From: a virus
Lineage: Duplodnaviria > Heunggongvirae > Uroviricota > Caudoviricetes
Reading direction: 5' to 3' (one strand)
Virus record (IMG/VR): IMGVR_UViG_2541047432_000021
Span: 1-4,357 of that record
DNA: 4,357 bases
Shown: positions 1 to 3,000 of the stretch, piece after piece
How the letters are laid out: each line of letters begins with the position of its first letter
How positions within the stretch are numbered: the first letter of the stretch is position 1
Made by a program: the position numbers

Positions 1-3000
1 TCAAATGCGCCAAAGGTTCCCAGTTTCAGGTTGTTTGTCGCCACTTTCGCATTGTGGTACATCACATTCAGGTCTTTTGCATCTGTCTGGATGTAGAACG
101 CTGCCAGCAGGTTATTCCCCCCGTCTCCGGTCAGGGCAACGCCCTGTGGCAGTGAAGATACCGGCCAGTAAAACGCCATAACATACTGGTTCGCAGCCAG
201 CACTCCCGAAACCTTAAAGCGGCAGCGAATCTGCCCCCCTTTCTGTAACAGAGCCGCACCGTTGCCCGCGGCGTACTCCAGCACCCAGCTGCTTTTACCG
301 GCTTCCTTGGTCAGCTTCACTGCCTTACCTCCGGTTCCCTCCGCATCGCTGACCACTTCTGCCCTGCCGCCACTGGCTGACCATCCCTGTACTTTCAGGC
401 TTCCCTCTGACTCGCTGGCAAGGTAAGAGAGCAGTGTTGTGACGCCTGTGGCTTCTGCACCGGAAGGCGATGACGGGCGCACCTCTGATACTGTCGATGA
501 TGCCCCCGCGTTTAGCGCCACTCTTCCCGCATGGCGCAAAATCGCCGTTGCCAGACGGTCGGAAATAATCCCGCGGCGAGCCCATGAACTGAAATGGCTC
601 GCCCTGTCCTGTGACGTCCAGGTGGCTGAGCTGTCACGCCATTTCGAACCGTAATATCCGATACCCGGAATGTCCGGGTCTTCTTCCGGTTTGTTCGTCG
701 GCACATTCACCCCGTTCTCATCCGTCATGAACGGTACGAAATGGATATTCTTTTCCGTTTTGTTTTTATAGCTGCCATACACCGTCTGGTACGTGGATTC
801 GTTCTTCTGCTTCCAGAAATACGTCGTGTCCCCGCATATCCAGGGAACACCGCCAGCAGAGCCACCGACGCACTGGCCTGCCATATCCGCCAGGTCTGCA
901 CGGAATTTATCAACCAGCGCACCAAACTGTGCGGCGTGATTTGCCGGCGTACCGCCAAAATCAAATTCCCCCTGCATCCACACCACGGCAAACAGCACAT
1001 TTTTCGGATTCTTCTTCAGTGCTGCTTTTGTTCGACCGATAAGGTCCTTATACAGCGGCTTGTCCACACCCCAGCGGGTTGAATTCTCCGAGGCACCACT
1101 CGCGTCACTGTATGTGCCATCGGCTCCGGTGGTGAACGCTGAACCACCACGACAGCACGGAACCAGCAGAATGCCCGCATTCGCCGGTATAAACGGCAGC
1201 AGTTTTTTGGCGATATGCAGCCCCTGCCCCACGGTTCCGTACTGCCCCTTTGACAGGTCCGCTTTCGGATGGTTAAGACGGCTCATGTCCTGCACATCAT
1301 GCAGACAATGGTCCGCCGGAATGATGTCGTTATATTTGCATACTGCACCGCCCGGTGTCACCGTACTGCGACGCGCTAACTGTTTAATACGTGGATCAGG
1401 GCTGTCGAATGTATCCGGCAATGGCAGTCCCTCACCGTATGACATACCATTGGACTGACCAGCAAGCGCGATCACATAGTAATATTCTGGCGCAACAGAA
1501 GGCGCTGAGGTCGTCGGACGGTTGCCTGGCTCCTCTGGTGATGAGATGCTCCCCTCACTCACAACTGGCTGGATGAACTCCGCACCATAACCAGCTGTCG
1601 AAATCAGCGCACTACCATAAGGCTGCCACCCTTCCTTCAGTTTTTGAGTTATTCGTTTCGCAAGGTCTGACGGCGACGCCGCCCTGACAACATCATAGTG
1701 TTTAAATGCCATGAATCCTCCCGGCCGGGATAATATTGTGAGTAAAATAAGGAGCGGGCTGAAGTCCGGAAGTTACAGGACAATGGCAGAAGGAAGACTA
1801 CAGCCCGAAATACGAAAAAGGCCGCGCAGTTGCGCAGCCTTATGAATCCTGGTTAAAATGATTTCGATTATTAAAACGAGTATCTCATGCAATTGCCCGA
1901 ACCCACTCGGGCTTTTTTACATGTAAAAAGGCCCCTGCTATGAGAGGCCTTGGTATATGCCTAATCTCTGTATACTGCATGGTGCCGGGTGCCTCCCGGT
2001 GAGTTCGGCCTGGTACCACCGAACCCGTGTCGATAATGAATCACAAGCAAGGATTTTTCACCAGTCGCCCCTCCACACAGGGGGATTCACCATGCGAAAT
2101 TTTTTTAACAAATGCTCAGTCTGACAGGCAACTGTCAACTGACTGAATTGTGACACAGATTACACTTGTTACCCACATACCACGAATCAGGTTATGCCTC
2201 AGTCATTATTAAACTGCACTTCAGCAAATCCGGAGCCTGATTCACAGGTACTGGATTTGATTGTGACAGTCATTCCTGTCAACTGAGCACTTTGCAGTAA
2301 CGGTTGCAGATTCCAGCGACTGGTCCAGTATTCTTTCCCGTCAACCTTCACTGTAAATGTGTCATCCTCATTATACTTGGAAAACTCAATTTTACCTTTA
2401 GCACAATCCGCCGCCATTGCATTAACAGAAGCTAATGCAAATAAAACCGCCATAAACATCTTCTTCATGCTTAACTCCTTTATTTACCCGTTGTATATAA
2501 AAACTGTGACTTTCTGTTCAGAAACGCTGCAGCTGTATTACTTTCCCATAATGTATTGTTTATTTTTATAACAGGCCTGTCGCCAGTTATCTGACATTCT
2601 GGTTGACTCTCTTCATTCACGGCGCGAACAGAACGCGCCCCCTGATGATGGCAATTCAGTATAACGGCCACAGTCCCCAGTATCGCTGATATATTATTAA
2701 AGGATATTCTCCCCACTCTGACACCATCCTCTCCCCGATACTCCGGAAGCACATTGCTGATTCGCCCCCAGTTCAGAGTGAGGTCCACGTCTCCCGGCGT
2801 CATCGTATACACAGGAGCAGTTTCAGACAGTGCCTGACGAAATTCTCTCTGTATCTGCCTGAAGCGTAAGGCTTCTGCTGTGACAGTGACAAAACGCAGA
2901 ACTGCTCTGGATGCATCTCTGGTCATTGTATTACCACTGAACTCCATTAACGCCAGATATGATGAAACCAGTGAGTGACGACTGATTTGCATTCCGGAAC

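Follow-up and report, generated by a model that had tools for sequence, protein, structure and literature searches.

The folded stretch of DNA that follows the toxin gene stx2B in a Shiga toxin 2a (Stx2a) phage is a real small RNA gene, and it is one that is already known. The window, i.e. the whole stretch that we analyzed, comprises 4,357 nucleotides (nt) of the IMG/VR virus record IMGVR_UViG_2541047432_000021 (positions 1 to 4,357) and represents a late-region segment of such a phage in reverse orientation. We conclude, with a probability that we put at roughly 0.8, that the interval just downstream of stx2B (1952..2198, minus strand) is an autonomous small RNA (sRNA) gene of the STnc100 family, at the locus published as EcOnc27 in Escherichia coli O157:H7 Sakai and as sRNA103 in strain EDL933 (Gruber and Sperandio 2015). 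The finding as first submitted is a rediscovery of a curated Rfam family and of a published Hfq-binding sRNA; its upside is modest and lies in an unexplained conserved core and in a possible promoter polymorphism.

The assignment to STnc100 (Rfam RF02076) is carried by an Rfam scan of the window, in which 1919..2124 on the minus strand matched the family with 207.7 bits (E = 2.6e-49) over the full length of the model (1-206 of 206), the curated gathering score being 47 bits. Four helices, which we call P1, P2, P4 and P5, all form in the minimum-free-energy fold of this copy and agree with the family consensus that was derived de novo. Furthermore, the copy starts 75 nt past stxB, which matches the published distance, and it is located between the Q antiterminator, tRNA and stx2AB genes on one side and the SASA esterase gene on the other, the same slot that is occupied in its relatives. 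It shares P1, P2, P4, P5, the terminator and the prophage setting with the family, and nothing sets it outside. Likewise, the locus is the same as that of EcOnc27/sRNA103, with no differences; the published record of this RNA, as far as it was accessible, consists of a binding peak and band sizes.

In support of this identification, the northern probe for EcOnc27 (Tree et al. 2014) corresponds exactly to plus-strand positions 1946..1980 of the window and hence detects a minus-strand RNA. In Sakai, EcOnc27 was described as a peak of Hfq in cross-linking and analysis of cDNA (CRAC) directly beside AsxR, with northern bands of ~235 and 247 nt, of which the 247-nt species was destabilized without hfq (PMC4104026 Table S2), and EcOnc27 and EcOnc02 were reported as convergent sRNAs 3' of stx2B (PMC4104026). 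On the window, the CRAC peak falls at ~1921..2000. The first-pass annotation had supposed that a stable small transcript bound by Hfq might be detected from here, and both the bands and the cross-linking peak are on record. The sister RNAs of EcOnc27 in Sakai measure ~177 to 271 nt (PMC4104026 Table S2), which indicates that leaders of differing lengths exist. According to reviews (including PMC7873438), EcOnc27 is sRNA103 of EDL933, the overexpression of which raised the transcript levels of fimZ and espA. RNA-seq reads show that the EDL933 STnc100 copy at 1353605 is transcribed in ordinary culture. STnc100 is a gammaproteobacterial sRNA with its first listing in Salmonella, and it is among the most abundantly annotated sRNAs in Rfam-based surveys, where it has no assigned function (PMC9029176).

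A five-helix junction and its conservation

The four inverted repeats that drew attention to the interval (TGACAG-GCAA-CTGTCA at 2122..2137, CCCCT-CCACAC-AGGGG at 2068..2083, GTTCGG-N10-CCGAAC at 2003..2024 and CCGGG-TGCCT-CCCGG at 1985..1999) are all present, and all of them appear as hairpins in minus-strand minimum-free-energy folds. The high density of structure that had been claimed for the region was confirmed against shuffled sequences, with z-scores of -2.32 for the 206-nt Rfam span (4 of 200 shuffles folded as well), -3.91 for the 235-nt module 2153..1919 (0 of 200 as good) and -5.08 for 1812..2198 (0 of 100 as good). However, while these hairpins are real, they are not the four discrete stem-loops that they had been taken for. 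Three of them, P2, P4 and P5, are arms of a single five-way junction, which is closed by the long-range helix P1 between GCAUGGUG (2088..2095) and CACCAUGC (1977..1984). In this junction AAU (two or three bases) lies between P1 and P2 and one base lies between P4 and P5, and P5 is stacked directly on the 3' strand of P1.

All five helices are formed by the minus strand. P1 was recovered de novo as 2088..2094 with 1978..1984, and the pair G2095-C1977, which is backed by a mutual-information scan, extends it in this copy; 94-97% of its cells are paired, with compensatory changes at 3-6 pairs. P2 (2068..2085, UCCCCC-UGUGU-GGAGGGG), which corresponds to the hairpin noted at 2068..2083, was likewise recovered de novo by RNAalifold, is 98% paired and shows compensatory change in 4 of its 5 pairs in an alignment of 144 copies. 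P3, a helix of three base pairs (bp) formed by 2066..2068 and 2027..2029, encloses the variable linker that separates P2 from P4; it was added by RNAalifold on a trimmed alignment. It is ~94% paired, its outer, variable pair occurs as GC in 52, AU in 24, CG in 21 and UA in 19 cases and ranks third in the mutual-information scan, and in the window copy its middle pair is a C-A mismatch that weakens the helix. P4 (2001..2026, GGGUUCGG-N10-CCGAACUC, 8 bp) extends the hairpin noted at 2003..2024, is 90-92% paired with compensatory changes at 5-8 pairs, and supplies the top pairs of the mutual-information scan. P5 (1985..1999, CCGGG-AGGCA-CCCGG), the hairpin noted at the same position, is the most conserved part of the STnc100 family. 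Across relatives, variation takes the form of strong covariation in P4, little in P2 (in a set of 21 copies) and hardly any in P5.

A covariance analysis had been proposed for the interval, and it strongly supports the five-helix structure. When 21 diverse STnc100 members were aligned with MAFFT, the de novo RNAalifold consensus recovered P1, P2, P4 and P5 and no other helix, and the five-helix model (P1-P5) was 95.5% paired in this alignment, compared with 39-47% when the partners were slid. A covariance model built from the five-helix structure found 152 copies in 100 sources, 144 of them distinct in sequence, and in these the helices were 94.7% paired, compared with 39-45% when slid, with compensatory change at 23 of the 28 pairs and all helices represented; none of 500 shuffles matched any observed measure, but note that the 144-copy alignment was fitted to the model, which favors the structure. 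Two checks are independent of the Rfam annotation: the MAFFT alignment concurs, and the mutual-information scan ranks pairs of the helices as its top 12. The occurrence of G-U pairs identifies the minus strand as the structured one. The Rfam consensus differs from our structure in two respects, namely that it lacks the covarying P3 and that it contains four minor helices (1, 4, 5 and 8) which are just 20-56% paired and which we rejected as unsupported. As for pseudoknots or tertiary contacts, the mutual-information scan shows the helices and the one-pair extension of P1 and nothing more.

The fourth of the inverted repeats lies in the 5' leader of the module (2096..2153, 58 nt, minus strand), which is kept in E. 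coli lambdoid relatives and includes an A-rich single-stranded tract; its first 29 nt precede the stretch covered by the Rfam model. The leader folds into a hairpin at 2108..2151, the inner stem of which is the repeat at 2122..2137. BP-4795 and Ss-VASD, the two Stx1 phages that were compared, have lost this inner hairpin by deletion; it is lineage-specific and probably dispensable.

The core is conserved well beyond E. coli. The 21-mer CACCGGGAGGCACCCGGCACC (2001..1981), which comprises the end of P4, the whole of P5 and the start of the 3' strand of P1, is found without change in at least 120 DNA stretches of species-representative genomes, among them those of Escherichia, Salmonella, Enterobacter, Klebsiella, Kosakonia, Citrobacter, Pantoea, Erwinia, Rahnella and Buttiauxella, although its apparent conservation is inflated by the fact that the loci were picked by an exact match to it. 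At least one STnc100 match at the gathering threshold was found in 14 of the 18 loci that were scanned against Rfam. Moreover, 42 copies found by the model without the exact 21-mer keep ACCGGGAGGCACCCGGC almost unaltered, with P5 nearly fixed. The nearly fixed elements are the P5 hairpin, its AGGCA loop, the AAU between P1 and P2 (J1/2) and the GCGG in the loop of P2, while the surrounding helices are free to covary, as in a Pantoea array where P1 differs among three cores in succession (AUGCGGUG/CACCGCA, CGGAACG/CGUUCCG and GCUAUG/CAUAGC).

Two unusual arrangements of the core were seen among these loci. Tandem arrays of 4-7 STnc100 cores occur in Pantoea prophages and on a Pantoea plasmid (loci L078, 4134..5931, minus strand; L040, 946..1993; L063, 6397..7022; L072, 3232..3604), in which some cores are 3-13 nt apart without an intervening terminator and each P1 helix is different. 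At other loci (L086, 4776..4975; L118, 2241..2506; L077, 4616..4824) the core abuts a tRNA gene of the same strand (Met-CAU or Arg-UCU) with a gap of 0-9 nt, mostly without a terminator of its own, and where a core runs into a tRNA in this way, cleavage by RNase P at the 5' end of the tRNA would set the 3' end of the core. Abutment is not general, as a tRNA of any kind is present in just ~19 of the 120 core loci. The idea that the element is itself a tRNA or tRNA-like was rejected: the Rfam tRNA model gave no match on 1919..2153 at E up to 1, and ARAGORN called no tRNA at any core position checked in the 120 loci.

The toxin genes, the 5' ends and the leader variants

The STnc100 module is not part of stxB, and it predates the arrival of the toxin genes. 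In BLAST comparisons with other phages, both Stx1 and stx-less ones, homology always starts at window 2153. The module with this boundary follows stx1B in BP-4795 and Ss-VASD and lies 46-75 nt after tRNA-Arg(UCU), with no toxin gene, in vB_EcoS-611R1 and phi296. In PhiR12_2_star, Q precedes it by ~300 nt without any annotated feature in the gap; a Pantoea prophage (L078) has NinG, a Q-like protein, six STnc100 cores and endolysin in that order. Because the same module stands beside different or absent toxin genes, it is part of the backbone of the phage, in the segment from Q to the lysis genes, and the gene orders indicate that stx2AB was inserted between the tRNA array and the STnc100 module, that is, upstream of the latter. 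A separate observation concerns a hairpin, GGCUCGCUUUUGCGGGCC, that is followed by a U run at 3480..3520 (minus strand), 3' of tRNA-Arg(UCU); it is common to stx-less phages (L003 and L005), in which the STnc100 module comes after it, and it is the upstream edge of the stx2AB insertion.

Small RNAs that are derived from 3' untranslated regions (3'UTRs) and bind Hfq include DapZ and MicL, which have their own internal promoter, and CpxQ and SroC, which are processed. Like STnc100, these RNAs share a terminator with an upstream coding transcript and are bound by Hfq at the 3' end. However, they evolved alongside their parent gene, whereas the STnc100 module predates the toxin and exists without an upstream coding gene; in addition, the conserved part of STnc100 is a large structured junction and not a seed. 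A simple scan of 2198..1951 together with inspection revealed no minus-strand terminator between the stxB stop and 1951, and since none was detected ahead of the terminator at 1925..1951, STnc100 forms the physical 3'UTR of any stx2AB transcript that is not antiterminated. With stx1B, tRNA-Arg or Q as neighbors, however, it does not evolve with its upstream gene in the way that a processed 3'UTR sRNA would. The first-pass annotation had called the interval a candidate 3'UTR-derived, Hfq-binding sRNA. The sRNA and the Hfq binding both hold (Rfam; PMC4104026), but the module is autonomous, and the term "3'UTR-derived" is unproven and, in an evolutionary sense, wrong.

Several sequence features might account for the 5' ends. 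Family-wide, -10-like hexamers cluster 0-7 nt before P1 (66 of 204 matches fall in 8 of 75 positions, where ~22 would be expected), often with a TTGAC -35 at the correct spacing, a sigma-70-type arrangement that is found across genera, and sigma-factor binding at STnc100 promoter regions has been illustrated in Salmonella by chromatin immunoprecipitation with exonuclease digestion (ChIP-exo; PMC10794520). The window contains a candidate internal promoter at 2102..2131 on the minus strand (-35 TTGCCT at 2126..2131, a spacer of 18 nt, TG at 2109..2110 and -10 TAAAAA at 2102..2107), which aligns with TTGACT-N18-TAAAAA of the related RNA PasD2. Transcription from it would start at G2095, the first base of P1, and would yield an RNA of ~174 nt. 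A second candidate -10, TGTAAT at 2159..2164 (minus strand), was recognized by alignment within a conserved A/U-rich block (AAATGTTAAAT in relatives, AAGTGTAAT here). This block could be a weak -10 element or a site for RNase E, either of which could lead to a 5' end near 2151..2153, and the distance from 2153 to ~1922 is ~232 nt, consistent with the ~235-nt northern band. Given a 3' end near 1922, the bands of 235 and 247 nt would place the 5' ends near 2156 and 2168, at the 5' boundary of the module and in the A/U-rich block. A promoter built on the perfect TTGACA at 2133..2138 was rejected, as there is no usable -10 at 16-18 nt and the hexamer is deleted in Stx1 phages. The main text of Sy et al. 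2020 gives no end mapping for EcOnc27, and the 5' ends of the window copy may stem from a promoter or from processing.

The leader also touches a live question, the association of Stx2a phages with hemolytic uremic syndrome (HUS). According to the accessible part of Paganini et al. 2025 (PMC12711010), two changes downstream of stx2B, a T/C single-nucleotide polymorphism (SNP) at +90 and the loss of a T at +103, distinguish the Stx2a phages associated with HUS from phages that have an stx2c-type backbone, and variants in this leader are the best genomic predictors of HUS among O157:H7 isolates. Alignment with the stx2c-type phage 2851 places the SNP at window 2110 (minus strand; T here, C in phage 2851) and the published deletion in the U-run 2097..2099, which is one U shorter in phage 2851, and shows that the window carries the Stx2a-type, HUS-associated allele. 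T2110 is the first base of the TG that belongs to the candidate extended -10 TGTTAAAAA (2110..2102), 6 nt before P1, and the T-to-C change gives CG; the one-U deletion shortens the spacer from the candidate -10 to P1. If the predicted promoter is real, the HUS-linked SNP would thus fall on a promoter element. No such link between the SNP and a promoter was found in the part of PMC12711010 that was accessible. The question becomes easier to address with three of the points made here, namely an autonomous module that is older than the toxin insertion, a conserved unit of five helices, and a HUS-linked SNP on a candidate promoter element.

Proposed mode of action and its alternatives

Read from the minus strand, the RNA consists of the leader (~2153..2096), the five-helix junction (2095..1977), and a linker (1976..1952) with the terminator. 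On the account that is best supported, EcOnc27 would act in trans by base pairing as an Hfq-dependent RNA, with Hfq on its 3' part and its specificity in the exchangeable 3' linker, as in its sister PasD. In lysogens it would be transcribed from its own promoter or promoters, and under Q antitermination it would additionally be part of the stx2/late transcript; the invariant junction might serve as a stabilizing or factor-binding scaffold. The linker (AGUAUACAGAGAUUAGGCAUAUACC, 1952..1976, minus strand) is single-stranded, 25 nt long, variable and exchangeable between copies. It is a candidate seed because it lies inside the CRAC peak 1921..2000, because the predicted seed and the chimeras of PasD lie at the equivalent place, and because the tail varies between copies, with an outright switch in Stx2_111430. 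This Stx2a phage (L127) is identical to the window from stx2B to CACCAUGCA and then continues with a 3' tail of the PhiR12_2_star/phi296 type, which points to a recombination breakpoint at the invariant core (1977..1984) and to a chimeric sRNA with another putative seed and terminator. In phage 2851, the leader and core are common with the window, and the linker and tail differ.

PasD1 and PasD2 of the enteropathogenic E. coli strain E2348/69 (Pearl Mizrahi et al. 2021; 2026 Pas sRNA preprint) are Hfq-dependent, with a predicted seed and chimeras from RNA interaction by ligation and sequencing (RIL-seq) at the place equivalent to the 3' linker, and the 5' end of PasD2 estimated from RNA-seq is the first G of P1. 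Both share P1, P2, P4 and the aligned -10 region with the window RNA. PasD2 differs in that it scores only 41.4 bits against STnc100, under the gathering score, with a degenerate P5 and P1 3' region, and in that it is 172-173 nt long, without the 5' leader and with another 3' linker sequence (seed UGUGAG). The phage sRNA HnrS of a 2025 preprint is not this RNA, but a different one of 66 nt.

Several observations weigh against the account given above. There is no established direct target, and the effect on fimZ and espA is indirect or an in silico prediction only. A pairing of STnc100 with stxB has been proposed (PMC12370729), but in the window sequence it is at chance level and was rejected, since the longest exact complementarity is 9 nt, which is attained by 14% of shuffles. 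In a typical Hfq-dependent sRNA the seed is conserved and the scaffold is free to vary, whereas STnc100 shows the reverse, so that a seed model leaves the invariance of the junction unexplained. Cores that lack terminators, stand in tandem arrays or abut tRNA genes do not fit it easily either, and the STnc100 terminator has just five U residues. As for the 5' ends, the internal promoter would yield ~174 nt, a size unlike the published 235- and 247-nt bands, and the -10 candidate farther upstream is a weak one that a consensus scan did not call.

With regard to STnc100 in outer-membrane vesicles, the quantitative PCR primers for STnc_100 in PMC12370729 mismatch the stx2-linked copy at 2088..2095 and 1985..2006 and fit a paralogue of the vB_EcoS-611R1 type, and in genomes with several copies that assay may not report the stx2-linked STnc100.

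The RNA might instead lack an own promoter and arise through RNase E cleavage of the stx2AB or late (pR') transcript, with which it would share its terminator. The stretch from the stxB stop to 1925..1951, where no terminator was detected, is a physical 3'UTR; the 5' ends deduced for the two northern species (235 and 247 nt) lie in the conserved A/U-rich block (2159..2168), a possible RNase E site; the candidate promoters are weak, none being called on the minus strand by the consensus scan; and the two northern bands could be a precursor and its product. However, the same module with the same 5' boundary occurs beside wholly different upstream neighbors, even without a toxin gene, and the promoters of relatives sit just before P1, where the 5' end of PasD2 is also found. 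In addition, pR' transcripts end at tR' in lysogens (PMC7547250), yet EcOnc27 and STnc100_3 were seen in uninduced cultures, a signal to which spontaneous induction could contribute. We regard this origin by processing as conceivable but doubtful. That the element acts mainly in cis, by terminating or insulating stx-region transcription in lysogens or by stabilizing the 3' end of the toxin mRNA, with the sRNA as a by-product, seems unlikely to us. It does provide the first terminator after stxB, and a stable structured 3' end would shield an upstream mRNA from exonucleases; convergent terminator pairs are, moreover, found at the same position in at least eight Sakai prophages (PMC7873438). A terminator, however, needs no junction of 120 nt with a core 21-mer that is exact across many genera, cores exist without terminators and in tandem arrays, and the Hfq cross-linking and overexpression phenotypes indicate activity in trans.

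It would be tempting to see the functional unit in the invariant five-helix junction itself, which would bind or sequester a conserved host or phage factor, with Hfq pairing by the tail being secondary and lineage-specific. This is a possibility that we hold in some doubt. The elements that are nearly fixed (P5, the AGGCA loop, J1/2 and the GCGG of the P2 loop) amid freely covarying helices suggest it, as do the terminator-less arrays with cores 3-13 nt apart and P1 sequences that are completely different, the cores that directly abut tRNA genes in L077, L086 and L118, and the abundant annotation of the family without an assigned function (PMC9029176). Against this, no partner is known, the mutual-information scan shows no tertiary covariation beyond the helices, the core is not tRNA-like by ARAGORN or by the Rfam tRNA model, a tRNA is present in only ~19 of 120 loci, and the choice of loci by the exact 21-mer inflates the conservation, though the 42 copies without the 21-mer show the same pattern. 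If it were true, lambdoid prophages across Enterobacterales would keep a factor-binding junction between Q and the lysis genes, sometimes in terminator-less arrays or fused to tRNA genes. A linked pair of claims goes further and is a rather improbable conjecture, namely that STnc100 RNAs function chiefly through the junction, which would engage a conserved host or phage factor, rather than through the Hfq-bound tail, and that in Stx2 phages both of the polymorphisms that predict HUS act on the expression of this RNA. Selection on the DNA, with the core as a linker at which lambdoid phages recombine to swap neighboring modules, is very unlikely. The tail switch of Stx2_111430 after CACCAUGCA, the differences of phage 2851 in both linker and tail, and the position of the element in a known moron-insertion region of lambdoid phages (PMC4104026) would all fit such a linker; compensatory changes in all five helices together with G-U pairs on one strand nevertheless mean selection on RNA, and recombination would be expected to follow wherever a stretch is conserved and need not be the cause of the conservation. 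As a sole explanation, selection on the DNA is largely refuted by the covariation. We give hardly any credence to the remaining idea, that the interval encodes a small protein. Open reading frames (ORFs) of 32-55 amino acids overlap it on both strands, hypothetical proteins are annotated here in several phage records, and a ribosome coverage value of 1.51 for the EDL933 copy at 1353605 and footprints on STnc100 copies have been reported. Nuclease-protected fragments of tightly folded RNA are, however, a common source of apparent footprints, and RefSeq has no annotation here. The small-ORF reading was rejected because the linker carries indels of many lengths among relatives, because variation is not at third codon positions and because inspection showed no Shine-Dalgarno sequence before the in-frame AUG within P1.

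AsxR, the terminators and the surrounding late region

The anti-sRNA gene AsxR (EcOnc02) lies at 1865..1917 on the plus strand, where it is identical to the consensus of Rfam RF02703 (88.1 bits; gathering score 63 bits). AsxR has been reported 282 bp 3' and antisense to stx2AB (PMC4104026), and since 2199 - 1917 = 282, its position in the window agrees with the published distance. The first-pass annotation had noted AsxR as reported near stx2 in phage Sp5 and had suggested that it be matched against 1952..2198. The gene is indeed nearby, but the Rfam scan of the window gave no match within that interval, and a location inside it is ruled out by the plus-strand map position, the only one found. 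AsxR is convergent with STnc100 and adjoins it on the opposite strand.

That the hairpins are followed by terminators proved correct for two sites on the minus strand. The Rho-independent terminator of STnc100/EcOnc27 (1925..1951, AAGGCCUCU-CAUAGC-AGGGGCCUU and a U tract), which is supported by the Rfam consensus and by the folds, has its stem at 1928..1951 followed by five U residues, a rather short tail; it is the first terminator downstream of stxB and was missed by the simple scan. That scan did find a second minus-strand hairpin of terminator-like form (1818..1841), which precedes the esterase gene, as well as the plus-strand terminator of AsxR at 1895..1912. The STnc100 and AsxR terminators stand back to back about the palindrome ACAUGU (1919..1924), and the U tract of each is encoded by the A run flanking the stem of the other, so that read-through of either would be antisense to the other RNA.

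The anti-sRNAs AsxR and AgvB (RF02703/RF02702) share their intergenic region with an STnc100-type RNA, to which they are convergent; anti-sRNA and STnc100-type RNA together make up the published sRNA dyad. Unlike STnc100, they lie on the other strand and outside the interval, measure just 51-60 nt, show no relation to it in sequence or structure, and serve as sponges of the core sRNAs FnrS and GcvB.

In minus-strand order, the window begins with the gene of a Q-type antiterminator (3919..4341), which is followed by three tRNA genes, Met-CAU, Arg-UCG and Arg-UCU (3530..3779), the only tRNA calls by ARAGORN in the window, and by stx2A (2480..3439; Pfam RIP) and stx2B (2199..2468; Pfam SLT_beta, E = 2.6e-48), a sequence identical to which is annotated as Stx2a subunit B in RefSeq. 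An intergenic region of 486 nt (1713..2198) separates stx2B from a sialic-acid esterase gene (Pfam SASA), which starts at 1712 on the same strand. The 622 nt from the start of stx2B down to 1847 are free of mismatches relative to prophage Sp5 of E. coli O157:H7 Sakai, and 1812..2300 is identical across many Stx2a genomes, strain 86-24 among them. The RefSeq annotation of Sakai and of strain 86-24 has no feature between stx2B and the esterase gene, despite the two published sRNA genes there, and hypothetical ORFs are annotated over the STnc100 RNA in some phage records.

Between Q and the tRNA genes, at ~3816..3905 on the minus strand, there is a strong terminator-like hairpin, CCCGCCAUUGAGCGGG, followed by UUUUUU; Rfam gave merely a weak, chance-level leader match there. 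This is the position at which the literature puts tR' and the small RNA StxS. StxS (Sy et al. 2020) is, like EcOnc27, an Hfq-binding sRNA of the late region of Stx phages, and it and the AsxR/EcOnc27 dyad have been described as bookending the toxin genes. It differs in being 74 nt long, unrelated in sequence, and derived from premature termination of pR' transcription at tR', upstream of the toxin genes.

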